Assembly: GCA_014859105.1 (NCBI GenBank)
Contig: JACUUX010000038.1
Location: 1-27,766 of the forward strand
From: Nitrospirota bacterium
GTDB taxonomy: Bacteria > Nitrospirota > Thermodesulfovibrionia > Thermodesulfovibrionales > SM23-35
Direction: 5' to 3'
DNA length: 27,766 nucleotides
Position numbers and translations under genes: made by a program. The notes below the pieces were generated by a model, which saw only the letters and a program-made list of their open reading frames with translations, did not search any database and had not been told where the DNA came from. Each line of letters starts with the position of its first letter. The stretch's first letter is position 1. Below are positions 961 to 27,715 of this stretch, in pieces.

Positions 961-1092
961 CATCCAGATTATTAAATAGACCTTTATATGAAAGGAGGTA
1001 GGCATCACATGTATCTCTAAACATCCCGGTTTTAAATTTTTGCATTATATTCGCAAGAAATTAAAAGAGGTGGCGTAGCGGAGGAGTAAGTT

Positions 1093-2364
1093 ATGCAAAA
1101 TATGAATAAAGATTCAAGAAAATATGAAAGAAGGCCTTTTTCTCAGATTATCAATTATTCCATCAGTACACTCGATTCCAAAGAACGAAAGTTGCTGAAT
1201 TTAAAGGGAAATACCTTTGACATCAGTGAAACTGGAGTAGGTATCTATACAGACTATCCTCTGGAACCCGGCCATTTGCTCTGGTTCAATGAAGTGATAG
1301 CAGATAAAGCTGGTTTTGTAAAATGGTGTGCAAAGCTTGACGATGGTTATAGAGTTGGAGTTGAGTTAGAAGTAACACAAGTCAAACGCCTTAATGAAGC
1401 AACGGAAATATTCAATCAGAGACTTGAAGAAATAGAAAAAAGATGTCTCGATCCTGAGGAAAATCCGGAAGAACTTTTACAGGCAACAATTAAAGCTATC
1501 GATGAAGTATTGATTTACTGTAAAGAATTCGAGATGGCAGTGAAAGACAAAGAAATAATTCGTGACGCTCGTACACGCTTCAGAGAAAAAACCAACCCAA
1601 TTTTGTCTAAAAGTTATTGTATAAACCGTGCGCGAACATGGCCTCAGGGATACCAGGGGGATTATAAAACACTGGAAACTGGCTATAAGAATAGCCCTCT
1701 ATCTGAAGGCATAGGATATTATCTTGATTTGTATTTACTGAATGCAGATCTTGCTCATGCTGTAAGAAACAGGATAAAAAAGCTCGAAAACATACTAAAA
1801 GATGAACTACAAAAGAGACAACAACCTTCTGTCTTGAATATTGCATGCGGTTCGTGCCGTGAGGTTTCTACATTAGCGCATGATATTGAAAAATCAGGTG
1901 CTAAATTCACATGTATAGATTTGGACAATGATGCCCTTGCTTTTGCTGCAAGCCGTTTATCGTATACTAATATTTCACCTCTTACATCAAATCAGATTGT
2001 ACTTCGTAAGTACAATGCACTCAGGATGTTCGACGATGAGTTAAATATGAATGAATTCGGAAATCAGGACATCATTTATAGTGTCGGGTTTTTTGACTAT
2101 CTGCAATCTGATTTCCTTGCTAATCTTTTAAAGGCCCTTTACAGACTGCTTAAACCCGGAGGGGTATTAATAACTTCCTTTAAGGATGCAGAAAAATACA
2201 GGTATCATGACTACCATTGGATTGTTGACTGGGACGGGTTTTTGCAGCGTACCGAGGCAGATTTCTGGAGAATATTTGAAGATGCTAAAATTCCAATTTA
2301 TTCAATAACCGAGACACGTGAAGATTCAGGGATAATTGTTTTCTACATAATATCTAAACAGTAG
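1093..2364 (+). CDS. PilZ-domain / class I SAM-dependent methyltransferase fusion protein
   Basis: 423 aa ORF with SD (gaggagtaagtt-ATG). The N-terminus carries the two PilZ c-di-GMP-binding motifs (RKYERRPF as RxxxR; DISETGVGI as D/NxSxGG). The C-terminal half has Rossmann MTase motifs (LNIACGSCRE motif I, CIDLD acidic post-I, LKPGGVLITSF motif II/III). Confidence 0.8.
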   Translation: MQNMNKDSRKYERRPFSQIINYSISTLDSKERKLLNLKGNTFDISETGVGIYTDYPLEPGHLLWFNEVIADKAGFVKWCAKLDDGYRVGVELEVTQVKRLNEATEIFNQRLEEIEKRCLDPEENPEELLQATIKAIDEVLIYCKEFEMAVKDKEIIRDARTRFREKTNPILSKSYCINRARTWPQGYQGDYKTLETGYKNSPLSEGIGYYLDLYLLNADLAHAVRNRIKKLENILKDELQKRQQPSVLNIACGSCREVSTLAHDIEKSGAKFTCIDLDNDALAFAASRLSYTNISPLTSNQIVLRKYNALRMFDDELNMNEFGNQDIIYSVGFFDYLQSDFLANLLKALYRLLKPGGVLITSFKDAEKYRYHDYHWIVDWDGFLQRTEADFWRIFEDAKIPIYSITETREDSGIIVFYIISKQ

Positions 2365-2381: not shown

Positions 2382-2439
2382 GGCATCTTGCCGGGTCGAT
2401 TTTAAACAGGTCAGGCAAGATGCCTGTCCTGTTTTTGTC
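2382..2439 (+). terminator. Putative rho-independent terminator downstream of PilZ-MTase gene
   Basis: Inverted repeat ggcatcttgcc (2382-2392) and ggcaagatgcc (2414-2424), followed by the T-rich run tgtcctgtttttgtc. The loop is long (about 21 nt), so the hairpin is atypical. Confidence 0.4.
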
Positions 2440-2953: not shown

Positions 2954-4228
2954 ATGAATAGAAATGTTGTAATTACAGGTATTGGGATTCTCTCTTCCAT
3001 AGGAATCGGGAAAGAAAATTTCTGGGATGTACTATTCAAGGGTAAAACAGGTTTTAAAGAAATAACTCTGTTTGATACCTCTGCTTTGAATGTCCATATA
3101 GCAGGAGAAATTAGTGATTTTGACCCCGTTGCCTTTCTGGGCAAAAAAGGACTCCGTACACTTGACAGGAGCACAAGACTTATAAATTCTGCTGCTAAGC
3201 TTGCCATAGAAGATGCAAATCTGCAAATTACAGAAGAGAATGCTCATCTTACGGGTGTCTCTATCGGAACAACCTTTGGAAGTCTCCATAGTATCTCACA
3301 GTTCGACCGTGAAGGGCTCATCGAAGGCCCTAAATATGTAAACCCATCACATTTTCCGAATACAGTTATAAACTCTCCTGCAAGTCAGGTCTCAATACGT
3401 TTTACGATAAAGGGGTTCAATACGACTATATCTACAGGCTTCTGTGCAAGCCTTGATGCCGTTTCATATGCTGCTGATTTTATAAAATTAAACAGGGCGG
3501 ATGTTGTTCTTGCAGGCGGTGTTGAAGAATTATGCGAAGAGACTTTCCTCGGATTTCACAACCTCGGATGTTTATCGGGATTTGATGGTTCAGAACCTCT
3601 TTGCTGTCCATTTGATGCAAGAAGGAACGGTGTAATCCTTTCTGAAGGAGCGGCTGTCCTAATTCTTGAAGATGAAGAACATGCATTAAGAAGAGGTGCA
3701 AGTATTATGGCAAAGATATCAGGTTATGGTAATTCTTTTGATCCATCACCCCCCTTTAATTCCCCCCTTGGTAAGGGGGGATACAGAGGGGTTGAGGAAT
3801 TCATAGTTGATGGAAAAGGATTAAGAAATGCCATTACCCTCGCCTTACAGGATGCATCTCTCCATCCTGAAAATATAGATTATATTTCTGCATCTGCGAA
3901 CTCAACAAAAGTACTTGACAGAATGGAAACAAATGTTATCAAAGAGGTTTTCGGAAATCATGCTTATAATATTCCGGTGAGTTCGATTAAATCGATGGTT
4001 GGTGAGTCTTTTTCTGCTTCAGGAGCATTGGCAATTGTGGCTGCAATAGGTGCGATGCAAAGAGGAATAGTTTTACCTACAGTTAATTACACTGAAAAAG
4101 ACCCTGAATGCGACCTTGATTATGTTCCAAACACAGCAAGACAGAAACATATAAACAATGTGCTTATAATATCATCTGATCCATATGGCAATAATGCAGC
4201 TATAATATTAGGAAAGCACGATGCATGA
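2954..4228 (+). CDS. Beta-ketoacyl-ACP synthase-like protein lacking both catalytic histidines (CLF/KS-beta-like partner), with in-frame GC-rich element insertion
   Basis: 424 aa with a thiolase-fold KAS N-terminus (MNRNVVITGIGILSSIGIG) and KAS C-terminal signature (PTVNYTEKDPECDLDYVPN). The candidate nucleophile Cys is retained (TGFCAS). The HGTGT His position reads SASANST and the GHxxGAAG His position reads GESFSASG. The stop overlaps the start of the downstream fabZ-like gene (ATGCATGA). Confidence 0.8.
   Translation: MNRNVVITGIGILSSIGIGKENFWDVLFKGKTGFKEITLFDTSALNVHIAGEISDFDPVAFLGKKGLRTLDRSTRLINSAAKLAIEDANLQITEENAHLTGVSIGTTFGSLHSISQFDREGLIEGPKYVNPSHFPNTVINSPASQVSIRFTIKGFNTTISTGFCASLDAVSYAADFIKLNRADVVLAGGVEELCEETFLGFHNLGCLSGFDGSEPLCCPFDARRNGVILSEGAAVLILEDEEHALRRGASIMAKISGYGNSFDPSPPFNSPLGKGGYRGVEEFIVDGKGLRNAITLALQDASLHPENIDYISASANSTKVLDRMETNVIKEVFGNHAYNIPVSSIKSMVGESFSASGALAIVAAIGAMQRGIVLPTVNYTEKDPECDLDYVPNTARQKHINNVLIISSDPYGNNAAIILGKHDA
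3745..3798. repeat. Family-B GC-rich palindromic element inserted in-frame in KS-like gene
   Basis: cacccccctttaattccccccttggtaaggggggatacagaggggttgagg is a poly-C/poly-G hairpin (cccccctt-ggtaa-gggggga) embedded in otherwise AT-rich coding sequence. It encodes PSPPFNSPLGKGGYRGVEE, an insertion relative to the KAS fold. Confidence 0.7.
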
Positions 4229-4712
4229 TCCAGGATGCAAGCAACTTGATTTTGAACAAATAAAAAAACTCATCCCTCAACGTTTTCCCTTCATCATGAT
4301 TGATAAGGTTCTTGAAGTTGAACCGGGTAAACATGCAGTCTCAGTTAAAAATGTTTCAGGTAATGACATATTCTTTCTCGGTCATTTCCCTGATATCGCA
4401 ATCATGCCCGGGGTTGCAATTATAGAAGCCATGGCACAGACTGCAATAATTATGTTTGCTGTCGGGCAAAAAGAAAATAATCCTTCCTCACCCCCCTTTA
4501 GCAAACCAATCTATTTTCTCGGATCAGTTAAAGCAAGGTTCTACCATCCGGTAGTCCCTGGAGACCAGTTAAAAATAAACGCGGTGAACGTAAAATCACT
4601 GCCAACCGGTGCTTATGTATCAGCAGAAGCATTTGTTAATGATAAAAAAGTTTCAGAAGCAGAACTTGTTTTTAGTGTCAAGGAGAAAGGTCAATTATTC
4701 CCTCCCCCTTGA
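4221..4712 (+). CDS. fabZ: 3-hydroxyacyl-ACP dehydratase, FabZ-like hotdog-fold protein
   Basis: 163 aa with canonical FabZ motifs (IPQRFPFIMIDKV; LGHFPDIAIMPGVAIIEAMAQ with catalytic His and Glu). It is translationally coupled to the upstream KS-like gene. It contains an extra SSPPFSKP segment encoded by tcaccccccttt (4488-4499). Its last codons (FPPP-stop) lie inside a GC-rich repeat. Confidence 0.85.
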   Translation: MHDPGCKQLDFEQIKKLIPQRFPFIMIDKVLEVEPGKHAVSVKNVSGNDIFFLGHFPDIAIMPGVAIIEAMAQTAIIMFAVGQKENNPSSPPFSKPIYFLGSVKARFYHPVVPGDQLKINAVNVKSLPTGAYVSAEAFVNDKKVSEAELVFSVKEKGQLFPPP

Positions 4713-4880: not shown

Positions 4881-6128
4881 ATGCTCAACAATCATCGTGT
4901 AGTTATAACCGGTCTCGGTGTTATCTCTTCCATCGGTATAGGCTGGGAGGAATTCTGGGACAATCTTCTCAAAGGGAAATCAGGAATAAGTCCTGTGACA
5001 TCTTTTGATACCACTAATCACATTACTCACAACGGCGGCGAAGTTAAAAACTTTAAGCCTGAAGAATTCATTCCAGAAGAAAAAATTAAATTACTTAACA
5101 GATCATCACAACTCGCCTTTGCAGCAGCAAAGCTTGCAATTGAGGATGCTTATTTGTCCCAAGAAAATTACCCCTCCCCCCTCCCCCTCCCTCAAGGGGA
5201 GGGGGCGAGGGGGAGGGTTGGCATCTGTATAGGAACAACTACAGGGTCGATACAGGCTATTGAGCATATTAATGATAGAATAATCAGTAATAAAGAAATA
5301 GGCAAAGAATTAATAAGTCAACTGCCACCTCATACTACTCCTTCAACGATAGCAAGAGAATTTGATTTAAATGGTCCTAATTTTATGTTTTCCACTGCCT
5401 GTGCAGCAGGCAATTATGCTATAGGTTATGGCTTTGATCTTATACGTTCTAAAAGGGCTGACGTTATTATTGCCGGAGGTTCAGACCCTTTCTCACGGAT
5501 ATCTTTCACAGGGTTCAATCAATTTTCTGTATCTGCTCCTGAAAAGTGTCAGCCTTTTGATAAAAACAGAAAAGGTATGATGGTAGCTGAAGGTGCTGGG
5601 ATTCTTGTTCTTGAATTACTGGAAATTGCTATAAGAAGAAATGCACCTATATATGCTGAGATATCAGGTTATGGTCTAAGCTGTGATGCAGAGCATATGA
5701 CGCAACCTTCTGTCGACGGTATTTCGGAATGTATGATAAAAGCAATGCGTGAAGCTAAAATCGAAACAGAAGATGTAGATTATATATGTGCGCATGGAAC
5801 TGGAACAACTTCTAATGATAAAACGGAATGTGCTGCAATTAAAGAGGTCTTTGGACCACTATATAAAAAAATGCCTGTAAGCTCTATAAAATCAATGCTC
5901 GGACATCCAATGGGTGCTGCATCAGCACTTGAGGCAATTGCATGTGCACTTGCAGTAAAAAATGACATTATTCCTCCAACTATAAATTATGAGACACCCG
6001 ACCCCGAATGTGATATAGATTGCGTTCCAAATAAATCAAGGCAACATCCTGTAAATATAGCTTTGAATAATTCTTATGCTTTTGGTGGGAATAATGCTTG
6101 TTTAGTGGTTAAAAAATTTATAGAATAA
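4881..6128 (+). CDS. Beta-ketoacyl-ACP synthase II-like (FabF-type) condensing enzyme with complete Cys-His-His triad, carrying in-frame GC-rich insertion
   Basis: 415 aa. Active-site Cys in FSTACAAGNYAIG, first His in ICAHGTGTTSNDKTE, Lys and second His in IKSMLGHPMGAASALE, and C-terminal NSYAFGGNNACLVV. Confidence 0.85.
   Translation: MLNNHRVVITGLGVISSIGIGWEEFWDNLLKGKSGISPVTSFDTTNHITHNGGEVKNFKPEEFIPEEKIKLLNRSSQLAFAAAKLAIEDAYLSQENYPSPLPLPQGEGARGRVGICIGTTTGSIQAIEHINDRIISNKEIGKELISQLPPHTTPSTIAREFDLNGPNFMFSTACAAGNYAIGYGFDLIRSKRADVIIAGGSDPFSRISFTGFNQFSVSAPEKCQPFDKNRKGMMVAEGAGILVLELLEIAIRRNAPIYAEISGYGLSCDAEHMTQPSVDGISECMIKAMREAKIETEDVDYICAHGTGTTSNDKTECAAIKEVFGPLYKKMPVSSIKSMLGHPMGAASALEAIACALAVKNDIIPPTINYETPDPECDIDCVPNKSRQHPVNIALNNSYAFGGNNACLVVKKFIE
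5170..5217. repeat. Family-B GC-rich palindromic element inserted in-frame in fabF-like gene
   Basis: cccctcccccctccccctccctcaaggggagggggcgagggggaggg is a near-perfect poly-C/poly-G palindrome. It encodes PSPLPLPQGEGARGRVG, which is not part of the conserved KAS fold. Confidence 0.7.
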
Positions 6129-6152: not shown

Positions 6153-6632
6153 ATGGCTGGAAATATTGAAAAAGAAGCATGTAAGAATATAATTATGAAC
6201 AGCTTTAAGACATATAGCCTTACAACTGATGAAAAACAGGAAATAAAACATCTTATAAAGGCGGAATTAGAAAAACATAATGAAATTGCCTTTGCCTATA
6301 TTTATGGTTCATTTATTGAACCCGAGATGCCTTTTTTCAGAGATATAGATATAGGTATTTACCTCATAGATTATAAAGACGCCGATTGTTTGAAATATGA
6401 AATTGAGTTATCCATTGAATTGGAAAAATGTCTCCAGTACAAATATCCAGTTGATTTAAGAGTTATAAATAAATCAGATATTTTATTTGTGCATAATGTT
6501 ATTCAGGGTGAATTGCTTTTTATAAGAGATGAAGATTTATGGACTGATTTCGTAGTATATGTTTCTTTAAAATACAATGATATAGCCTCTGTATTTAATC
6601 ACTACTTCAAGGAGGCTTATATAGAAAGATGA
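6153..6632 (+). CDS. mntA: Nucleotidyltransferase-domain antitoxin (MntA/MNT family)
   Basis: 159 aa with the minimal nucleotidyltransferase motif (YIYGSF ... RDIDIGIY, i.e. GSx(n)DxD). Its stop overlaps the start of the downstream HEPN gene by 4 bp. Confidence 0.75.
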   Translation: MAGNIEKEACKNIIMNSFKTYSLTTDEKQEIKHLIKAELEKHNEIAFAYIYGSFIEPEMPFFRDIDIGIYLIDYKDADCLKYEIELSIELEKCLQYKYPVDLRVINKSDILFVHNVIQGELLFIRDEDLWTDFVVYVSLKYNDIASVFNHYFKEAYIER

Positions 6633-7048
6633 GTTTGGATAAGGTTAAGATAAAAGCAAGATTTGAGGATATACAAAAGGCTATTGATAGACTTTCTGAG
6701 TTTACAAAGATTGACAAAAATTCATTTCTTTCGAATGAGGATTTTATCCATATAGCCCGTTCCCATCTTCTTATTGCTTCGGAAGCATCTATTAACATCT
6801 GCTACCATATTGCAGCAAAAAGGCTAAAAAGGGCACCAGCCGAATACAGTTCGTGTTTTGAATTATTGCAAAGGCATAAGCTTATATCAGAGGAGTTAGC
6901 ACTCCATCTTATCAAACTAATCGGGCTCAGAAACAGAATGGTCCATCGCTATGAAGAGATAGACTACGGTTTCATATATGACAATTTTAAAGAGATTATA
7001 GAAAACTTTAGAAAACTTATTAATGAAGTCTCAAGTTTGATAATTTGA
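6629..7048 (+). CDS. hepT: HepT-like HEPN-domain toxin (DUF86)
   Basis: 139 aa with the Rx4-6HxY HEPN motif (RNRMVHRY) near the C-terminus. Paired with the upstream MNT-type gene. Confidence 0.75.
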   Translation: MSLDKVKIKARFEDIQKAIDRLSEFTKIDKNSFLSNEDFIHIARSHLLIASEASINICYHIAAKRLKRAPAEYSSCFELLQRHKLISEELALHLIKLIGLRNRMVHRYEEIDYGFIYDNFKEIIENFRKLINEVSSLII

Positions 7049-7289: not shown

Positions 7290-7392
7290 ATGTATGATGC
7301 TGTAATCATAGGTACGGACATAAGCGGCCTTGTTTGTAGATGTTATCTGGCAAAGGCAGGAAAAATGGGACGTCATGAGCATTTAATACTTG
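7290..7392 (+). pseudogene. Degenerate duplicate of the 5' end of the downstream CrtI-like oxidoreductase gene (gene remnant)
   Basis: atgtatgatgctgtaatcataggtacggacataagcggccttgtttgtagatgttatctggcaaaggcagg is about 80% identical to 8076-8150 (atgtatgacgccataatcataggtgctggcataggaggccttgtatgcggatgttatctcgcaaaggctgg). The translation MYDAVIIGTDISGLVCRCYLAKAG has a ruined GxGxxG and terminates after 34 codons. Confidence 0.7.
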
Positions 7393-7452
7393 TTAATTAA
7401 CATCCAAAATGCTAAGTTATTTTTGAGGAAATCAAGAAGAAGGAGAAGAAAA

Positions 7453-7698
7453 ATGGTCAGCAAAAAAACCTATAAAGAGCGGATAGTAATTGATCCTGAA
7501 ATTCACTTTGGAAAGCCTTGTGTGGCTGGCACACGAATTCCAGTAGAAAATGTGCTTGAATTAGTTCAGGAAAACATTCCTTTTAGCGAAATTGTGGAAA
7601 AATATTATCCCGACCTTGAGATTGAAGATGTTAAAGCTTGTGTTAGATATGCAACAGATTTGGTTTGTTCGGAAGAAATTCATGTTGGAAAAACTTAA
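7453..7698 (+). CDS. DUF433-family small protein (putative antitoxin)
   Basis: Core HFGKPCVAGTRIPVENVLE is typical of DUF433. Likely start is MVSKKTYKE at 7453 after the purine-rich SD gaagaaggagaagaaaa. The six-frame ORF extends upstream to 7390 via TTG. Confidence 0.7.
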   Translation: MVSKKTYKERIVIDPEIHFGKPCVAGTRIPVENVLELVQENIPFSEIVEKYYPDLEIEDVKACVRYATDLVCSEEIHVGKT

Positions 7699-8054
7699 TG
7701 CGTCTACTTACAGATCAGGACGTGTATAAAATAACAGTAGAACAGCTTAAAAAATGGGGCCATGATGCAATAACCGCTAAAGAGCTTGGTATGCAACAAG
7801 CAGCAGATAGAGATTTACTAAAGAAAACTATTGAAACAAATCGGTTGCTTATTACAAGGGATAAGGATTTTGGGGCACTTGTTTTCTTAGAAGAATCATT
7901 AAATACTGGAGTCATTCTTCTAAGAGTTACTCCAATAACTGTTGAAGATGTACATCGGGAACTTTATCGTCTCTTTCAGGAACATACCGAAGAGGAATTA
8001 AAACATTTATTCTGTGTTGTTGAGCCTCATCGGCATCGAATTCGCCGTTTATAG
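7698..8054 (+). CDS. DUF5615-family PIN-like protein (putative toxin partner of DUF433)
   Basis: ATG at 7698 overlaps the upstream stop (TAATG). MRLLTDQDV ... ITRDKDFG matches the N-terminus and acidic core of DUF5615/Mut7-C-like PIN proteins that pair with DUF433. The six-frame ORF starts earlier at 7665. Confidence 0.65.
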   Translation: MRLLTDQDVYKITVEQLKKWGHDAITAKELGMQQAADRDLLKKTIETNRLLITRDKDFGALVFLEESLNTGVILLRVTPITVEDVHRELYRLFQEHTEEELKHLFCVVEPHRHRIRRL

Positions 8055-8075: not shown

Positions 8076-9497
8076 ATGTATGACGCCATAATCATAGGTG
8101 CTGGCATAGGAGGCCTTGTATGCGGATGTTATCTCGCAAAGGCTGGCATGAAGGTGCTTATCTGCGAGCAGCATTATAAACCGGGAGGTTATTGCACATC
8201 CTTTACAAGACAGGGTTTTACTTTTGATGCTGCTCCTCACTGTTTTGGATCTTACAGAAAAGATGGAATGATGAGAAAAATCCTTCAAGACTTAGAAGTA
8301 GATAAAAAATTAAATATAATAAGACCCGACCCTTCAGATATTATAATGACACCTGATTATGAAGTCATCTTCTGGAATGATTTCGAAAGGACCACAGAGG
8401 GATTTCAAAGAATGTTTCCTGAAGATCGCACTAATATCAGGAATTTCTTCACCCTGTTAATGGATACCGATCCTAACTCCTTCTCTAGAATGAAGAACCG
8501 TACCTTCAAAGAATTATTAGATCAATATTTAACTAATGTAAAGTTGAAGTCGATCCTATCCTTTCCATTTCTGGGAATCGGAGGTTTGCCTTCGTCCATG
8601 ATATCTGCCTTCATAGGAGCAAAACTCTTCTCCGAATTTTTATTTGACGGTGGGTATTATCCCGAAGGTGGCATGCAGGCGCTGCCTGATGCTTTAGCAG
8701 AGAGATTAAAAGAGTTCGGCGGTGAGTTGAGACTCTCCTGTCCTATCAAAAAAATACGAGTAAGAGAGAATAGAGTTACGGGCGTAATCTCAGAAAAAGA
8801 CGGCTTCATGCCTTCAAGATATGTGATTTCGAACTGTGATGCCAGACAGACTTTTTTCAAACTCATAGGCGGGAGAAAGGTTGAGAGAGAGTTCTCTCAG
8901 AGATTAAAGAAGATGGTGCCCTCTATATCGAATTTCATTGTCTATATGGGCATAGACGGTCATTTTGAAACCCTGCCGAGACCAGGAACCACCCTTTCCT
9001 TTTTTAGATACTATGACATAGAGAAGGCATACCGGTCAGTACTAAAAGGCGACTTCGAAGGCTACGGCGGATATATGCTGCGAGCCTCCCGGGATACCCC
9101 GGTTATCATAGCAATCATTCCTGTACCATTTAAAAACAAAACCTATTGGAAGGATCACAAGCAAAGATTATCGGAATATCTAATAGAGAGAATAGAGAGA
9201 GATTTGATTCCGAATCTCACAGCCCATATCGTATATAAAGACGCATCCACTCCATCTACCTTAAACAGATATACTTTAAACTATAAAGGTGCCTCCTTTG
9301 GCTGGGCTGGTATACCTTCGCAATTAGCAGTCCCGGGCCTGAGAAAGTGCTCGTATACAGAGGGGCTCTATTTGACAGGACATTGGACTACACTTGGAGT
9401 AGGAATCTCTGGAGTGGCGTATGTTGGGTATGACACCGCGAAGATTCTTATAAGGAGAGAGGTAAATAGGCAAAACATCTCATTTTTGATAAAATAA
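8076..9497 (+). CDS. NAD(P)/FAD-dependent oxidoreductase, phytoene desaturase (CrtI)/amine-oxidase family
   Basis: 473 aa. N-terminal dinucleotide-binding motif YDAIIIGAGIGGLVCGCYLAKAGMKVLICEQ ... PGG, and a C-terminal FGWAG ... LYLTGHWT motif characteristic of the CrtI-like family. Confidence 0.75.
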   Translation: MYDAIIIGAGIGGLVCGCYLAKAGMKVLICEQHYKPGGYCTSFTRQGFTFDAAPHCFGSYRKDGMMRKILQDLEVDKKLNIIRPDPSDIIMTPDYEVIFWNDFERTTEGFQRMFPEDRTNIRNFFTLLMDTDPNSFSRMKNRTFKELLDQYLTNVKLKSILSFPFLGIGGLPSSMISAFIGAKLFSEFLFDGGYYPEGGMQALPDALAERLKEFGGELRLSCPIKKIRVRENRVTGVISEKDGFMPSRYVISNCDARQTFFKLIGGRKVEREFSQRLKKMVPSISNFIVYMGIDGHFETLPRPGTTLSFFRYYDIEKAYRSVLKGDFEGYGGYMLRASRDTPVIIAIIPVPFKNKTYWKDHKQRLSEYLIERIERDLIPNLTAHIVYKDASTPSTLNRYTLNYKGASFGWAGIPSQLAVPGLRKCSYTEGLYLTGHWTTLGVGISGVAYVGYDTAKILIRREVNRQNISFLIK

Positions 9498-9503
9498 AAA
9501 CTA

Positions 9504-11645
9504 GTGGACAAAGATAAATATATACAGCAGGAGCTATTGGAAACAATCCGGTCGTTCACCGGTTTACTCTTTCTCATCGGTGCCCCAGCAATATTGTTGT
9601 TGAGTCTGCTCGATTATTTTGTGACACCCGAGAATTTTAGAACCTTCCTTGTTTATCGGTTGGTCGCTACCTTACTCTACGTGACATTATATTTCATATT
9701 CAAAAGAGTAAAAAAATATCCCCTCTTCTTCCTCATAATGGGCACCGTCATAGTTTCGTCTATGGTCGAGTTGATGATACTTTCTTTTGGGGGTCATCAG
9801 TCGACCTATTACGCGGGCATGATCATCGTGTTTATCTTCCTCTTCGGATTGCTCCCCTTCTCTCTCAGAATATCCTTACTTCTCGCTTCAATCATCTATG
9901 CTATTTATCTGATTCCTATCTTAGTCTTGGACCAGATCACGAACATGCGCGTCTTTATGAACAATAACATCTTTCTCTTTGCTACCCTCATGAGTGTACT
10001 TATCTGGAGACATATCAATTACAAGATTCACCTCAAAAAGCTTTCCCTCGAATATGACCTTTCCCAAGAACAGAAACAACTTAAAACTTACTCCACCCAG
10101 CTTGAAGAACTTGTCCAACAAAGAACAAAGGAGCTTGCCATCTCAGAAAAATGGCACAGGTCAATTTTTGACAATGCTACCGAAGGAATTATGGTGCTTG
10201 ATAACAACGGTGCGATTGTTAACGTTAATAAAATGGCATGCGACCTACATGGCTTTACCGGAAATGCTTTAGCAGGTGTAAATATCGGGCTTCTTGAAGT
10301 AAAAGCAGACAAGGAAAAAATTAATGAGAGGTTATCGAGAATTTTAAATGGTGAAACGCTTACTTATGAAACAGAACATTATAGAAAAGACGGTGAGAAG
10401 GTTCTTTTAGAAATCAGCTCAAACCGTATAGATAGCGAAGGCCAGACATATATCCAATGCTTCTGCAGGGATATAACTGAAAAGAAGAAGATTCAGGAGC
10501 AGTTGATACATTCACAGAAAATGGAATCAGTCGGCGCACTCGCCGGAGGCATCGCTCATAACTTCAATAATATTTTGACCACGATTCTCGGATATTCAGA
10601 ATTGTTGATTGAATACAGCAATCTTGATGACTCATCAAAACAGAAGGTAGAAAATATTGAGAGTTCTGCAAGAAAGGCAGGAGTAATGGTCTCGAAACTC
10701 CTGGGTTTTGCAAGGAGAGAAAAACATGAAATCCTTCCTTTAAACCTGCATCATGTAATCAATGATTCAGTTAAACTCTTTGAGGGTGTGCTTGACAAGA
10801 AGATAGGATTGAAGATAAATCTGTGCAGTAATAATCCAATTATCGAAGGAGATCCGAATCAGGTCGAGCAGGTTATTATGAACCTCATAGTTAATGCAAA
10901 GGATGCAATGCCTGACGGAGGCCTTATAACAATAAAAACTGACATAATCGAGATTGGAAAGGATAAAACCGATACGCCGGCTTACATAGAACAAGGAAAA
11001 TATGTCGTATTAACCGTGTCTGACACAGGCTGTGGCATACCTAAAAATATAATCAATAAAGTATTTGATCCTTTCTTCACAACTAAAGAGAAAGGGAAAG
11101 GAACAGGCCTTGGACTTGCTATGGTTTACGGGATTGTCAAAGATCACAGAGGCTATATTTCTGTTCAAAGTGAGATAGACAAGGGCACAATTTTTGACAT
11201 ATACCTCCCTGTTTCAGAAAGAGTTGTTCACAGGGTTACAAAACCACAAATCTTTTCGATAGAAGGACATGAAAATATACTTGTAGTCGATGATGATAAA
11301 GACGTATTAAACTTTATTAAGGATATCCTTGAAACGCATGGATATACTGTTACGTCTGCAAATAACTCCCTGACAGCAATTGACATATTCAGGAATCTTT
11401 CCGGAAAAATTTCGCTTGTAATAACAGACGTACTTATGCCACTGATGGAAGGAGGAGAACTAATAAAACAATTGAAAGAAATAAAACCGGATATCAAGAT
11501 AATCATCATTTCCGGCTACAGCGATGAAAAAATTACAAAAGACATGGTCGATGTGTTTATCAGGAAACCTTTTGAAAGTATTGAACTCCTGTCAGCGGTC
11601 AGACGGCTCCTCGATGCACAGGGCAGGAGATCACCACTTTATTAA
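9504..11645 (+). CDS. Hybrid sensor histidine kinase / response regulator with multi-TM N-terminal sensor and PAS domain
   Basis: 713 aa with a GTG start 7 nt after the oxidoreductase stop. About 6 hydrophobic helices in the first 170 aa, then a coiled-coil and PAS (ATEGIMVLDNNGAIVNVN). HisKA H-box (GGIAHNFNNILTTILGYSELL). HATPase_c (IVNAKDAMPDGG, GTGLGLAMVYGIV). C-terminal receiver (ILVVDDDKD ... ITDVLMP ... IIISGY). Confidence 0.85.
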   Translation: MDKDKYIQQELLETIRSFTGLLFLIGAPAILLLSLLDYFVTPENFRTFLVYRLVATLLYVTLYFIFKRVKKYPLFFLIMGTVIVSSMVELMILSFGGHQSTYYAGMIIVFIFLFGLLPFSLRISLLLASIIYAIYLIPILVLDQITNMRVFMNNNIFLFATLMSVLIWRHINYKIHLKKLSLEYDLSQEQKQLKTYSTQLEELVQQRTKELAISEKWHRSIFDNATEGIMVLDNNGAIVNVNKMACDLHGFTGNALAGVNIGLLEVKADKEKINERLSRILNGETLTYETEHYRKDGEKVLLEISSNRIDSEGQTYIQCFCRDITEKKKIQEQLIHSQKMESVGALAGGIAHNFNNILTTILGYSELLIEYSNLDDSSKQKVENIESSARKAGVMVSKLLGFARREKHEILPLNLHHVINDSVKLFEGVLDKKIGLKINLCSNNPIIEGDPNQVEQVIMNLIVNAKDAMPDGGLITIKTDIIEIGKDKTDTPAYIEQGKYVVLTVSDTGCGIPKNIINKVFDPFFTTKEKGKGTGLGLAMVYGIVKDHRGYISVQSEIDKGTIFDIYLPVSERVVHRVTKPQIFSIEGHENILVVDDDKDVLNFIKDILETHGYTVTSANNSLTAIDIFRNLSGKISLVITDVLMPLMEGGELIKQLKEIKPDIKIIIISGYSDEKITKDMVDVFIRKPFESIELLSAVRRLLDAQGRRSPLY

Positions 11646-16391: not shown

Positions 16392-16946
16392 ATGAAGAAG
16401 AACGGGAACTGGGTTTCGGAATCAAAAAGAGAACATAAAAGAATCTATTCAGAACTTGATGCACTGCTCAGGTCGCTCGACAGGTTTTTTTATGCAGAAA
16501 ATCTCCTCATATCCCATGAAGACCTTACAATAAAAAATTTTCATGATGAACTTATTGCAGTGAGGGATGTCATTTTCAGAATCCTCGGCTTACTCGAGGT
16601 TATTATCCCTGAGAGTAAAAAGAATGCATACTTGTTTCAGAAATTTACCGAAACAAAATTCCTAAATGATTATACAAGAGACCTTTTTAAAGAAGGTTTG
16701 TACAGACAGGATACTCCCGGGAAAAGTTTATATCTACTTTATGATGCCTTTATAAACCTTAAAGGTATTGTTACCGACCTTCTCAGGTCTAAAAAAATAT
16801 CATATCTCGGCTATAAAAATATAGGTCAACTTATAAGCAAAGAGATAAGAGAAAACATTTATTTTAATCCCTTCAGAACGGATATCAATCCTGAATTTGA
16901 CATAATCGAAAATCCTCAAATATCAGAAATTGTAAAATCGATATAA
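16392..16946 (+). CDS. Hypothetical protein, no recognisable domain
   Basis: 184 aa ORF whose ATG abuts the lpd stop (TAAATG), implying translational coupling. Predicted all-alpha and basic N-terminus. No motif I can assign. Confidence 0.5.
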   Translation: MKKNGNWVSESKREHKRIYSELDALLRSLDRFFYAENLLISHEDLTIKNFHDELIAVRDVIFRILGLLEVIIPESKKNAYLFQKFTETKFLNDYTRDLFKEGLYRQDTPGKSLYLLYDAFINLKGIVTDLLRSKKISYLGYKNIGQLISKEIRENIYFNPFRTDINPEFDIIENPQISEIVKSI

Positions 16947-17076
16947 AGATAAGGAAATAAAAAGATATATTTCCGTGATATATATTTATCTCTTCAGGTT
17001 TTTAAGGTACTTAAGTCACATTGACATTACATCACAGCATTCTGTTGTCCTTAACTCAGCCTTATCAATTCTCATT

Positions 17077-17748
17077 ATGCTCGGCTCAGAAATAAATATG
17101 TTCCATAATTATATGAAAAGGGCAAGTAAATCAATAAAAGAAGAAAAATTGAAAAACCTTCTGAAATTTATTTCTTATCAATTTTCTATGGAGATAAAGA
17201 GGGTGTATCTCCAGGAATTGAAAGATATAATGCGAAAAAAGGCCCCGCAGCATTTCAGAGGAAAAATAGAAAACAGCTATGGCATTATGAAAAATCTTAT
17301 AGAGCAGAGCATAGTTCAACTCGTACAGTATTTTAACCCTGAAGTTCAGGGTAAAGATATTTTCGACAGCTTTACCACGAGGCTCCATCAATCATTAAAG
17401 TTACGGGAAGATATTTCTGTCCTCCGTATGTTCCTTACACTCCTTGAAGACAAAGCAAATTCACCAGAAGAAAGCACAAATGTTCTTAAATCCTTGAAAA
17501 ATTTTATGCATTATTTTGAAAGTTTCACTTTTAAATTATTAAGATATGATGACTATGATGAATTTTCTGCCTTTTGTAATTATTTTAATTCAGTTAAAGA
17601 ATCAGATATCCAGAAAATCCTTGAAAAAATTCATAATTTTAAGATATTTTTAGATACAACACTTCAACACATGGAAAACAGGGCTGAAATTGCAGACAAG
17701 CCCATAGATAGAGAAAGAACTGAAGAGCTTTTTAAAAAATATTTATAG
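17077..17748 (+). CDS. Hypothetical protein, no recognisable domain (start uncertain)
   Basis: The ORF is open from 16975, but the first approximately 35 codons are low-complexity. In-frame ATGs lie at 17077, 17098 and 17113, none with a good SD. Helical, K/E-rich, with no catalytic motif seen. Confidence 0.45.
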   Translation: MLGSEINMFHNYMKRASKSIKEEKLKNLLKFISYQFSMEIKRVYLQELKDIMRKKAPQHFRGKIENSYGIMKNLIEQSIVQLVQYFNPEVQGKDIFDSFTTRLHQSLKLREDISVLRMFLTLLEDKANSPEESTNVLKSLKNFMHYFESFTFKLLRYDDYDEFSAFCNYFNSVKESDIQKILEKIHNFKIFLDTTLQHMENRAEIADKPIDRERTEELFKKYL

Positions 17749-21535: not shown

Positions 21536-21818
21536 TTTAATTCATAGCGAACTCTGTTCCAATAGTTGATTCATTAGGTTGTCATTCCCGCTTGTCGGGA
21601 ATCCTTCTGTTAACAAAGAAAGATTCTGGACAAGCCAGAATGACAGAATTAAAAATCTTAAACAACTTTTAAGATCTTTGATGATTAATAGCATAGCGAA
21701 AGGTTGCGGCTATCTATAAACCTTACATAATTTGCTCCGAAAATGTCATTCCGAGCGAAGCGAGGAATCTTGTCTTTGAGATTGCTTCAGGCTAAAGCCC
21801 TCGCAATGACATTTTTAT
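21536..21818. repeat. Family-A mosaic repeat, copy 2 (reverse orientation)
   Basis: 21538-21580 is the reverse complement of module M3 (aattcatagcgaactctgttccaat). 21581-21610 is M2rc (gtcattcccgcttgtcgggaatcc). 21612-21650 is M1rc (agattctggacaagccagaatgacagaatt). 21651-21695 is M5rc (cttaaacaacttttaagatctttgatgattaatagc). 21738-21815 is M4 (tgtcattccgagcgaagcgaggaatctt ... ccctcgcaatgaca). Confidence 0.8.
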
Positions 21819-25284: not shown

Positions 25285-25686
25285 AACATCAGCAATTCTT
25301 TGCGAAGAAGAGACAAGATTCCTCAGTCGTCCCGACAGTTGCCGGAACTCCTTCGGAATGACAAAATGAGCCTTCTTCATTGTCATTCCGAGCGAAGCGA
25401 GGAATCTTAAAGCTTTACAAATTAACCGAGAATTGCTGATTAATCATTTGATATCTTGTGAATTATGCAAGACAATAGTTAAAATTTTAAATATGCTATT
25501 AATCTTTAAATATCTTAAGGGTCGTTCAATATCTTCAATTCTGTCATTCTGGCTTGTCCAGAATCTTTCTTCGAACAACCCCCTAACCCCCTTTACTAAG
25601 GGGGATTCAGAAGGATTCCCGATCCGCCTTAGGCGGAGGAATGACGGCTTAACTTATCAAGCATTGGAACGGAGTTCGCTATGAAT
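25285..25686. repeat. Family-A mosaic repeat, copy 3 (M4-M5-M1-M2-M3)
   Basis: 25288-25440 is M4 (atcagcaattc ... tgtcattccgagcgaagcgaggaatctt ... gagaattgctgat). 25495-25537 is M5. 25538-25570 is M1 (aattctgtcattctggcttgtccagaatc). 25578-25645 is M2. 25646-25686 is M3, ending cattggaacggagttcgctATGAAT, and that ATG is the midA-like start. Confidence 0.8.
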
Positions 25687-26799
25687 TCCCTCGAGCAAAA
25701 GATTATTGAAAAAATAAAAAAACAAGGCCCTATTACTTTTAAAACCTTTATGGAAATGGCACTTTATGAGCCGGAGCTTGGTTACTATGCATCAGAGAAG
25801 ACAGGGATTGGTAAGACAGGAGATTTCTATACAAGCCAGCATGTCCATCCTGTGTTCGGTACAATGCTTGGAAAACAGCTTGAAGAGATGTGGAAAATTA
25901 TGAAGAAACCCTCTGATTTCCTTATTATTGAACCCGGGGCAGGTGAAGGGTATATGTGCAAGGATATACTGGACTATCTGAAAAAGTGCGAACTGTCAAA
26001 TTCTTTCATATATATCATAATAGAAAAGAATCCTTTTATGAAGGTCAAGCAAAAGTCATTGCTAAATGACTATGAAGACAAAGTGAGGTGGATATACTCA
26101 TTGGAAGAACTCAGCGATATCACTGGATGTATCCTCTCAAATGAATTGCTTGATTCATTTCCTGTACACATGATAGAAATGGAGGATGAATTGAAGGAGA
26201 TTTACGTAGGTTTAAATAATGGAAGCCTGACAGAAATAAAAGGAAATCCAAGCTCAGATGATTTGAAATATTACCTAAAAGAATTTTCCATAAGTCTATC
26301 CGGTGGATACAGGACAGAAATAAACCTGAGGATAAAAGAATGGCTTAAAACTGTCAGCAAAGTAATTTCAGAGGGATTTATTTTCACGATCGATTATGGC
26401 TATCCCGTCTGGGACTACTACAGCGAGGACAGAAACAGGGGAACACTTCTCTGCTATTATAAGCATCAGGTGAATGAGAATCCTTATAAAAATATAGGAG
26501 GGCAGGACATTACAGCCCATATCAATTTCACTTCTGTAAAAAAATGGGGCGAAGAATATGACTTTAAGACAATTGGTTTCTGTCAGCAGGGAATTTTTTT
26601 TGTTTCCCTCGGTATTGATGAAGTAATACAGGAAATATATGAAAATCACAGTGAGTATTTATTTGAGATCGCAAAGATAAAGAAATTAATTCTCCCGGGC
26701 ACTATTGGAGAAACGCATAAGGTAATGATCCAGTATAAAGGCAGAAAAAATTTCGAACTGAGAGGATTTTCGATAAAAAATCAAAAAGATAAATTATAA
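25681..26799 (+). CDS. Class I SAM-dependent methyltransferase, MidA/NDUFAF7 (DUF185) family
   Basis: 372 aa. N-terminal ITFKTFMEMALYEPELGYYAS ... GDFYTS ... FG pattern typical of MidA. GxG in IIEPGAGEGYM. The SD (ggag) and ATG are contributed by repeat module M3. Confidence 0.75.
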   Translation: MNSLEQKIIEKIKKQGPITFKTFMEMALYEPELGYYASEKTGIGKTGDFYTSQHVHPVFGTMLGKQLEEMWKIMKKPSDFLIIEPGAGEGYMCKDILDYLKKCELSNSFIYIIIEKNPFMKVKQKSLLNDYEDKVRWIYSLEELSDITGCILSNELLDSFPVHMIEMEDELKEIYVGLNNGSLTEIKGNPSSDDLKYYLKEFSISLSGGYRTEINLRIKEWLKTVSKVISEGFIFTIDYGYPVWDYYSEDRNRGTLLCYYKHQVNENPYKNIGGQDITAHINFTSVKKWGEEYDFKTIGFCQQGIFFVSLGIDEVIQEIYENHSEYLFEIAKIKKLILPGTIGETHKVMIQYKGRKNFELRGFSIKNQKDKL

Positions 26800-26813: not shown

Positions 26814-27557
26814 TCATTTTTCGATTAAGGTCTCTTCCTGGCTTTCTAAAATATCCTCTGCTATAAGATATTCAACATAGTCCTTTAAAATCTTTGACTT
26901 CTTATCTGTAATTCGTTTGAATTCTATTGCCATGCCAGGGGGAATCTTGAAAATATCACCAAACAGTCCTTTTGTGTATATAACAACACCTTTTAAATGG
27001 ACTAATCTCCTTCCTTTTAAAGGAATGGTAACATCAACTTCAGCCCCGATGGGGAGCGGTTTTAGTCCCCTTATATAAATTCCTCCCTCAGAAAGTGTTT
27101 CTGCATAAAGTTCATGCCGTTCTTTCTTGTGAGTGACAATTACCTTTCTTATAAATGAAATTCTCAAGTGTTTCCTGTTTTTACCAATCAGGGAAAAAGT
27201 GGATTTCTGTAATACGGTATGCAGCTTTGATATGTTTATAGGTTTTGAAAGGCACGCCAGACATCCCATTTTTGTACATTCTTTTATTGTCTTAGTTGTT
27301 GAATCACTTAAAATCATTATGACCGGGATGTGAGATGTTTGTTTATCTTCTTTTAAACGCTTTAACACAGAAATTCCATCAATTATTGTAAGATAGGTAT
27401 CAAGCATTACAATATCCGGGCCACAAAGCTTCATTAGCTTCAATACCTCTGCCCCGTTCTCGGCAGGAATAACCTTAAAACCCATTCTGGTTAAAAGAAT
27501 ACCTGTGTACATTAAAAATGCCTTGTTGTCGTCAGCTACAAGTATCCTTTTTTTCAT
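26814..27557 (-). CDS. Response-regulator receiver domain fused to C-terminal PilZ domain
   Basis: Likely start MKKRILVADDN at 27557, with SD aagga 5 nt upstream; the ORF extends to a GTG at 27581. REC motifs (ILVADDN, DIVMLD, SKP). The C-terminus carries PilZ motifs (RKHLRISFIRK as RxxxR; LSEGGIYIRG as D/NxSxGG). Confidence 0.75.
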   Translation of the reverse strand: MKKRILVADDNKAFLMYTGILLTRMGFKVIPAENGAEVLKLMKLCGPDIVMLDTYLTIIDGISVLKRLKEDKQTSHIPVIMILSDSTTKTIKECTKMGCLACLSKPINISKLHTVLQKSTFSLIGKNRKHLRISFIRKVIVTHKKERHELYAETLSEGGIYIRGLKPLPIGAEVDVTIPLKGRRLVHLKGVVIYTKGLFGDIFKIPPGMAIEFKRITDKKSKILKDYVEYLIAEDILESQEETLIEK

Positions 27558-27715
27558 TGTGTCCTTATATCCTAAAAGCACATCCGTAAGATATCTCTTT
27601 CTTCATAAGTATAGCCAATAATATTCAAAAAAGGCATGAAAAATATAAAATATTTTTAACAATTAAGAAAAAATACCTAACCCGGATTATTCATAAAATT
27701 ATTGGCAAAACTTAT

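Follow-up and report, generated by a model that had tools for sequence, protein, structure and literature searches.

What is a receptor domain for cyclic diguanylate (c-di-GMP), a second messenger, doing at the head of a methyltransferase? The question is raised by one gene in a stretch of 27,766 nucleotides from a Nitrospirota bacterium (GenBank assembly GCA_014859105.1, contig JACUUX010000038.1; the whole stretch is called the window in what follows), in which a PilZ domain and a class I S-adenosylmethionine (SAM)-dependent methyltransferase are encoded in a single reading frame. A fusion of this kind in 1093-2364 had been proposed in a sequence-only reading of the window, and the Pfam profiles, the conserved motifs and the structure models agree on it: the covalent PilZ-methyltransferase fusion is real. 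As to its role, we tentatively favor, at somewhat less than even chances, a c-di-GMP-gated signal synthase of the PhcB type, which would form one half of a Phc-like signaling cassette and take its acyl substrate from neighboring ketosynthase (KS)/FabZ/KS/CrtI-like genes. PhcB is the SAM-dependent methyltransferase that makes the quorum-sensing signal of Ralstonia, methyl 3-hydroxymyristate (also methyl 3-hydroxypalmitate), and PhcS is a sensor kinase (PMC8578825; PMC11960443). The features of the gene, with its product numbered in amino acids (aa), are the following:

1093..2364, forward strand: gene for a PilZ / helical lid / class I SAM-methyltransferase protein of 423 aa (open reading frame, Pfam, AlphaFold model)
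1080..1086, forward strand: Shine-Dalgarno-like GGAGGAG, 6 nt 5' of the ATG (sequence inspection)
1117..1377, forward strand: PilZ domain, aa 9-95
1117..1131, forward strand: RxxxR motif R9-K-Y-E-R13, predicted first c-di-GMP-binding motif (conservation of R9 and R13)
1219..1236, forward strand: second PilZ motif DISETG, D43-G48 (conservation; definition from 10.1101/814665)
1378..1815, forward strand: C-terminal helix of the PilZ domain (aa 96-118), leading into a helical lid (aa 125-241) (AlphaFold helices)
1627..1665, forward strand: family signature R-A-R-T-W-P-Q-G-Y-Q-G-D-Y, aa 179-191 (invariant columns, alignment to the PhcB motif)
1828..2355, forward strand: Rossmann-fold SAM-methyltransferase core, aa 246-421 (Pfam, invariant columns, Foldseek)

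The reading frame begins with an ATG that is preceded by GGAGGAG, and 820 homologues of its product were retrieved. The full-length AlphaFold2 model has a mean pLDDT (predicted local distance difference test) of 78.9, and the N-terminus modeled alone reaches 70.4. In the predicted layout, aa 18-92 fold into six strands, 96-118 into a long helix and 125-241 into a helical bundle, and 246-421 make up the Rossmann core; helices lie at aa 96-118, 125-150, 153-171, 175-182, 191-200, 207-216 and 222-241.

The assignment of the N-terminus to PilZ is borne out by several lines of evidence. On the full-length protein the PilZ profile (PF07238) scores 22.0 bits, just below the cut-off of 22.5, and on aa 1-105 alone it scores 26.4 bits (E 8.7e-6), above the cut-off; in the family as a whole, 22 of 23 N-termini match PilZ and no other Pfam family. 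Both motifs that had been read in the sequence, RKYERRPF and DISETGVGI, stand at the places given for them and are conserved in the 31 homologues, of 62-86% identity, on which motif conservation was judged: R9, R13 and G48 are invariant, while D43 and S45 are conserved to at least 90%. Among 48 distant representatives, R13 and R17 of the alignment (A4) are likewise at least 90% conserved or invariant. The stretch D43-I-S-E-T-G48 matches the refined definition of the second motif, [D/N]hSxxG with a hydrophobic second residue (Galperin and Chou, 10.1101/814665). The assignment was said to fall if the motif spacing were wrong or the N-terminus not PilZ by profile; DISETG follows R13 by 30 residues, inside the expected 20-30, and the N-terminus passes the PilZ cut-off on its own. 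Moreover, the model shows the six-stranded beta-barrel and long C-terminal helix of a canonical PilZ domain, and the top 17 matches of this part in the PDB (Foldseek) are PilZ domains without exception, with that of BcsA among the best. At the level of sequence profiles, the PilZ profile of the window's architecture (class 1, see below) gave only chance matches against PDB sequences (E about 0.4), and the full-length family profile gave nothing there at E<=1e-3. Judged by its motifs, the PilZ domain probably binds c-di-GMP. A second PilZ protein, a fusion of a receiver (REC) domain with PilZ, is encoded at 26814-27581 on the reverse strand of the window (33.8 bits in Pfam), so that the organism has further c-di-GMP effectors.

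The methyltransferase motifs of the sequence-only reading stand as firmly. Methyltransf_12, Methyltransf_25 and Methyltransf_11 each pass their gathering cut-offs over aa 247-360, and motif I (LNIACGSCRE), the acidic residue D276 and motif IV (DIIYSVG) are invariant in the 31 homologues. The core at aa 246-421 alternates strands and helices in the model, with 662 Foldseek matches to solved methyltransferases at E<=1e-3, and its structural neighbors are small-molecule and polyketide synthase (PKS) methyltransferases. By profile, modeled fold and motifs the protein is a class I SAM-dependent methyltransferase, for which catalysis is predicted.

Between the two domains lies a region, carrying RARTWPQGYQGDY, that had been described as a helical linker. 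It is helical in the model, as described, yet it is no mere linker: aa about 96-241 form a conserved lid that belongs to the catalytic module and is common to PhcB. Its conservation is as strong as that of the catalytic core, with R179, R181, T182, W183, P184, G186, Q188, G189 and D190 invariant in the 31 homologues, and the low pLDDT of aa 181-187 (below 50) would fit a mobile loop. The counterpart of this signature is RTFTKPLGYAGDY in PhcB and KPRGYPGDY in the Omnitrophota relatives.

The likeness to PhcB was traced through a tblastn search of plasmids, which led to a 468-aa methyltransferase of Paraburkholderia graminis whose gene is followed by those of a histidine kinase and two receiver proteins. 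This is the operon order phcB-phcS-phcR-phcQ (PMC8578825), and close relatives of the protein in Cupriavidus, Massilia and Paraburkholderia are annotated as 'regulatory protein' or '3-hydroxypalmitic acid methyl ester biosynthesis protein'. The phcBSRQ-like operon is carried on a conjugative 494-kb plasmid, NZ_CP024936 (methyltransferase gene at L081 5518-6924), and no Pfam family matches the first ~170 aa of the PhcB-like protein encoded there, which look strand-rich by eye and have no link to PilZ. The window protein aligns to the P. graminis protein over aa 141-380 (BLASTP E 3e-16), with RTWPQGYQGDY opposite RTFTKPLGYAGDY. Compared by hhalign, the profiles of the two families match at 98.3% (E 1.9e-14 over 238 columns); the pre-Rossmann lid alone matches the PhcB lid at 94.5% (E 7e-8), and the lid of the diverse PilZ-methyltransferase family does so at 97.8% (E 1e-12). 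Furthermore, many homologues are assigned by the JGI pipeline to the KEGG orthologue group of PhcB. The homology takes in the lid and the Rossmann core together with the GYxGDY loop, and since the lid match persists although generic methyltransferases lack that lid, the catalytic module is specifically PhcB-like. The methyltransferase of the window very probably belongs with the PhcB family.

Two other matches of the family come without a described function. PF12147 (Methyltransf_20, 'putative methyltransferase') scores on 24 of the 48 distant representatives, the first at 36.9 bits against a cut-off of 21, and on the window protein at 12.7 bits only; the best Foldseek match to the full model is PDB 3ocj, an uncharacterized protein of Bordetella parapertussis.

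The second half of the putative cassette is a kinase gene farther downstream, which is separated from the methyltransferase gene by the genes of fatty-acid type:

9504..11645, forward strand: PhcS-like hybrid histidine kinase with membrane sensor domain (weak MASE8), PAS, HisKA, HATPase and REC domains (Pfam)
2954..4228, forward strand: KS1, FabF-like ketosynthase (Pfam; NCBIfam, below the FabF cut-off; motif check)
4221..4712, forward strand: FabZ-type 3-hydroxyacyl-acyl carrier protein (ACP) dehydratase (NCBIfam NF000582, 138 bits against a cut-off of 113)
4881..6128, forward strand: KS2, FabF-like ketosynthase with a complete Cys-His-His triad (Pfam, NCBIfam, motif check)
8076..9497, forward strand: flavin adenine dinucleotide (FAD) oxidoreductase of the CrtI/phytoene-desaturase family (Pfam Amino_oxidase; NCBIfam crtI_fam at 169 bits, below the cut-off of 238)

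Aa 13-206 of this kinase, its membrane domain, can be aligned with aa 14-214 of the PhcS-like kinase (E 1e-10 to 2e-10), the kinase cores align with E 1e-25, and weak MASE8 matches are found in both. The synthase gene is encoded upstream of a PhcS-type kinase, with 7 kb of KS/FabZ/KS, toxin-antitoxin and FAD genes in between. Synteny was followed in 80 species-level genomes, nearly all of Nitrospirota or Thermodesulfovibrionia, and linkage was counted over 43 loci, those for which 7.5 kb or more of sequence was available downstream. This kinase lies downstream of the methyltransferase on the same strand in 40 of these loci; in the three where it was not detected, insertions push it past the fetched stretch. 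The link to the KS/FabZ/KS genes suspected from the window is real synteny, with the KS pair present in 38 loci, FabZ in 31 and the FAD oxidoreductase in 28, and in the five loci without KS genes the kinase follows 13 to about 1200 bp after the methyltransferase. The most constant partner of the methyltransferase is the sensor kinase, not the KS genes, and this linkage is conserved across three phyla.

Set beside the PhcB-PhcS pair of the Ralstonia/Cupriavidus phcBSRQ operon, the window shares the homologous lid and Rossmann module with its R-T-x-x-P-x-G-Y-x-G-D-Y loop, and in both the methyltransferase gene precedes, on the same strand, that of a multi-pass membrane histidine kinase, with sensor domains that can be aligned. 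It differs in its N-terminus, a canonical PilZ domain where PhcB has ~170 aa without a detectable PilZ signature; in its kinase, a hybrid with PAS and REC domains, with separate phcR and phcQ absent; in the KS/FabZ/KS/CrtI-like module inserted between synthase and sensor; and in its host, a member of the Nitrospirota rather than of the Burkholderiales.

Since the PilZ and methyltransferase motifs are intact and conserved, activity gated by c-di-GMP is a fair reading of the fusion. The sequence-only reading had spoken of an unknown substrate gated by c-di-GMP; the gating remains plausible, whereas the substrate is not wholly obscure, as the PhcB-like module points to a carboxyl methyl ester derived from a fatty acid. 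The enzyme would O-methylate the carboxyl of a fatty-acid-derived molecule to give a hydrophobic, diffusible methyl ester, the acyl chain of which would be tailored, in most Nitrospirota, by KS1/KS2, FabZ and the CrtI-like oxidoreductase, with FabG in addition in many relatives; the downstream kinase would sense the product in the membrane. Binding of c-di-GMP would wrap the RxxxR loop onto the PilZ barrel and shift helix 96-118, a movement that, by analogy with BcsA, would reposition the lid and the mobile GYQGDY loop so that the active site opens or closes. The signal output would then track the cellular level of c-di-GMP.

Known systems offer partial precedents for such a device. In BcsA and Alg44 a canonical PilZ domain is likewise built into a biosynthetic machine, and c-di-GMP gates catalysis allosterically; there, however, the output is that of an exopolysaccharide synthase and PilZ lies C-terminal to the glycosyltransferase, whereas in the window it lies N-terminal to a soluble small-molecule methyltransferase. 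The pair MapZ (PA4608)-CheR1 of Pseudomonas aeruginosa also joins a PilZ c-di-GMP receptor to a SAM-dependent methyltransferase, with the C-terminal helix of PilZ as interface. MapZ acts in trans, on a methyltransferase of methyl-accepting chemotaxis proteins, while the domains of the window protein are covalently fused and its methyltransferase is not of the CheR type. The known link between PilZ and methyltransferases had been given as the one in trans, and MapZ-CheR1 is the sole such link mentioned in the PilZ review (10.1101/814665).

A survey of domain architectures, suggested as a check on the fusion, found it to be widespread. An exhaustive profile search covered 1.84 billion representatives and returned 283 clusters at E<=1e-30 and 2225 at E<=1e-10; among 48 N-terminally extended representatives PilZ is present in 46 (best E 3.8e-23), and double-PilZ and REC + PilZ variants occur among the distant ones, which argues that the fusion is under selection. 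Three architectures are found in Nitrospirota: PilZ and core as in the window (class 1; 424-450 aa, 31 loci); the core only (about 350 aa, 31 loci), with FabG between the methyltransferase and KS1 in many; and a different PilZ (40-47 bits) followed by a zinc ribbon and the core (464-483 aa, 11 loci). In the last of these the order is PilZ, CxxC...CxxC zinc ribbon, lid and methyltransferase (L034, L038, L039, L057, L064, L074-L078 and L080, with the methyltransferase gene at about 8001 in most), and the second PilZ motif is often NxGLxG, with Gly for Ser. Compared directly by hhalign, the PilZ domains of class 1 and of the zinc-ribbon class match with a probability below 1%; the sole connection between them runs by way of the diverse family profile (98.8% and 99.3%) and is partly circular, since this profile contains relatives of both classes. 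The three architectures are interleaved in a rough neighbor-joining tree, a pattern that repeated gains would explain as well as an old fusion that was lost repeatedly. In one close relative, L020 7881-8981, which is 77% identical over the core, the PilZ part is missing and the interval from the SPFH gene to the methyltransferase is longer by ~1.5 kb; the PilZ-coding region could have been lost or disrupted recently.

Outside Nitrospirota, the relatives of one distant member belong mostly to Candidatus Omnitrophota and bear the NCBI name 'PilZ domain-containing protein'. In all five Omnitrophota loci examined, a receiver protein, the methyltransferase and then a seven-transmembrane (7TM) histidine kinase follow one another, with a single-domain receiver next in four; one of the five methyltransferases is PilZ-less. 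Apart from their REC domain, the upstream receiver proteins show no likeness to either PhcR or PhcQ. One of these loci has a GGDEF gene in its vicinity, and another a GAF-HD_5 gene. That PilZ-PhcB-like synthases and membrane sensor kinases form widespread, unrecognized cassettes of quorum-sensing type in Nitrospirota and Candidatus Omnitrophota, with c-di-GMP allosterically gating the production of a fatty-acid methyl-ester autoinducer, is a broader proposal, possible and rather doubtful.

Several observations weigh against a c-di-GMP-gated PhcB-type signal synthase. Identity to PhcB is only about 24%, and the N-terminal domain is not shared by sequence: the PhcB N-terminus matches PilZ profiles with a probability below 1% and gives no Pfam match even at E<=10. 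The idea that it is a degenerate PilZ domain was rejected for want of sequence support. The window kinase has PAS and REC domains that are extra to the PhcS plan, no separate phcR- or phcQ-type receiver gene lies by it, and there is no phcA-like regulator in the window; in place of an operon continuing into phcR and phcQ, there is a REC domain within the kinase itself and a fabH gene that converges on the 3' end of the kinase gene. The sensor of the Omnitrophota 7TM kinases has no detectable similarity to that of the window or PhcS-like kinase and is a different domain. About 40% of the Nitrospirota members lack PilZ, from which it follows that c-di-GMP control is dispensable for the core function. 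The adjoining plsX-fabH genes leave room for a role in membrane lipids. Finally, in the window the methyltransferase and the downstream genes may not be co-transcribed, given a terminator-like hairpin and a repeat-bearing spacer of 590 bp:

2412..2436, forward strand: terminator-like hairpin and T-run, 48 nt past the stop (consensus scan, pattern match only)

An inverted repeat, 2381-2392 / 2414-2425, is found at this site; the methyltransferase and KS1, 590 bp apart in the window, are separated by about 5 bp in several close relatives.

Among the alternatives, the one that survives best is the tailoring of membrane lipids. An unusual fatty acid of the membrane (for example methyl-branched, methyl-esterified or through BioC-style 'masked' intermediates) would be the joint product of the methyltransferase, KS1/KS2, FabZ and the CrtI-like flavoenzyme; membrane composition would be adjusted by c-di-GMP, and the role of the neighboring kinase would be unrelated or one of feedback. 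We regard it as unlikely. It draws on the synteny of the KS pair, FabZ and FAD oxidoreductase given above, on FabG between methyltransferase and KS1 in many relatives, on the plsX-fabH genes next to the locus, and on weak matches to BioC, cyclopropane fatty acid (CFA) synthase and CMAS, with cyclopropane fatty acid synthases also among the structural neighbors. Pairs of a methyltransferase and a FAD enzyme are, in addition, known to make 10-methyl and furan fatty acids (BfaB/BfaA, UfaM/UfaD). The profile scores, however, are far from those of such enzymes (CMAS, PF02353, 15.0 bits against a cut-off of 27; NCBIfam CfaB, 15.9 against 650), and the lid motif is like that of PhcB, not of CFA synthases. 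Five Nitrospirota loci and all five Omnitrophota loci pair the methyltransferase with a kinase and have no KS or FAD genes, so that the fatty-acid genes appear as an add-on and the kinase as the constant partner.

It is also conceivable that the PilZ domain is an adaptor and not a c-di-GMP switch: whether or not it binds nucleotide, it would help the protein to dimerize or to dock (on the kinase, an ACP or the membrane), and the methyltransferase would be constitutively active. The PilZ-less share of the family, which works without the domain, speaks for this, as do the altered motifs of a few members (for example NLCDAG, or NLGLNG in the zinc-ribbon class) and the C-terminal PilZ helix, a known protein-interaction surface (10.1101/814665). 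Yet RxxxR and the G of DhSxxG hardly vary, if at all, among the 31 close and the 48 distant members, and PilZ domains within fusion proteins invariably keep c-di-GMP binding (10.1101/814665), which makes an adaptor quite unlikely.

More improbable is a protein methyltransferase within the signaling pathway, that is, a CheR-like methylation of the adjacent kinase or receiver under c-di-GMP control, as a covalent version of MapZ-CheR1. The close coupling of methyltransferase, kinase and receiver genes in three phyla would suit it, weak CheR matches in Pfam occur in both the window protein and the PhcB-like protein, and MapZ-CheR is a precedent for control of a methyltransferase by PilZ. Against it, CheR scores 17.2 bits where the cut-off is 27, and over aa 231-292 only, which is the SAM-binding motif; the nearest characterized relative, PhcB, is described as a small-molecule signal synthase, and the structural neighbors are small-molecule and PKS methyltransferases as well.

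Lastly, the analogy drawn at first between the methyltransferase with its KS-like/FabZ/KS genes and an aryl-polyene-type pigment cluster including its methyltransferase is hardly credible and was rejected: the KS/KS-like pair, dehydratase and methyltransferase do resemble aryl-polyene and highly reducing type II PKS loci superficially, with sub-threshold matches to cispentacin AmcF and AmcE, but KS1 retains its Cys, unlike a classical chain-length factor, the methyltransferase falls in the PhcB-like family, and the hallmark genes are absent, the 27.8-kb window holding no ACP, adenylation, ammonia-lyase, thioesterase, acyl- or glycosyltransferase or LolA/MMPL export genes and no ACP motif in any frame.

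The fusion is not rare: it is a large family, already labeled 'PilZ domain-containing protein' or 'PhcB' by automatic pipelines, so both domains have been seen and the architecture exists in databases. A literature search, thin on subscription journals, found no paper on a PilZ-methyltransferase fusion, on a PhcB relative outside Burkholderiales or on PF12147, an absence that is not proof. The PilZ review lists cellulose synthase, Alg44, signaling domains and a kinase as gated partners and no PilZ-methyltransferase fusion (10.1101/814665). If a c-di-GMP-gated PhcB-type synthase is indeed encoded here, PilZ on an autoinducer-type synthase would place signal production under immediate post-translational control by c-di-GMP, a direct path from second messenger to signal synthase, and a small-molecule methyltransferase would join the enzymes gated by PilZ. 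Links between c-di-GMP and quorum sensing are usually transcriptional. The Phc system, described only for Ralstonia in the papers found, would then reach deep-branching, mostly uncultured anaerobes, and Phc-type chemistry, with fatty-acid methyl esters sensed by a membrane kinase, is suggested well beyond plant-pathogenic Burkholderiales. Nitrospirota and Omnitrophota are poorly cultured and, to our knowledge, essentially without described cell-cell signaling. The PilZ-less, double-PilZ, REC-PilZ and zinc-ribbon variants provide natural controls within the family.

As to the neighborhood, the genes of the window follow in the order SPFH protein (184-960), PilZ-methyltransferase, the 590-bp spacer, KS1, FabZ, KS2, two toxin-antitoxin-like pairs, the CrtI-family oxidoreductase, the hybrid histidine kinase, and the converging fabH and plsX. 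KS1 keeps its Cys (TGFCAS) and has lost both catalytic His (SANST for HGTGT; KSMVGE, with GE for GH), and it is probably a non-condensing partner subunit; the usual chain-length factor, unlike KS1, loses the Cys. Two adjacent reading frames on the forward strand, at 16392-16946 (184 aa) and 16975-17748 (257 aa), lie between the genes of lipoamide dehydrogenase and enolase and have no Pfam match. The toxin-antitoxin-like pairs between KS2 and the FAD oxidoreductase, a nucleotidyltransferase/HepT pair at 6153-7048 and a DUF433/DUF5615 pair at 7390-8054 (both on the forward strand), are carried by only some relatives (L003 the first, L016 the second) and are thus recent insertions into a conserved cluster. 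The 3' ends of the kinase gene (forward) and fabH (reverse) are convergent and overlap by 15 bp at 11631-11645. Neither a known RNA nor a remnant of FabG turned up in a search of the intergenic stretch 2365-2953; that stretch holds a dispersed repeat, as 2506-2658 shares 157 bp at 84% identity with 25540-25689. A shorter inverted copy lies at 21540-21647, short pieces recur in L072, L020, L016 and L003, and the repeat looks like a miniature mobile element or one of the repetitive extragenic palindromic (REP-like) type.

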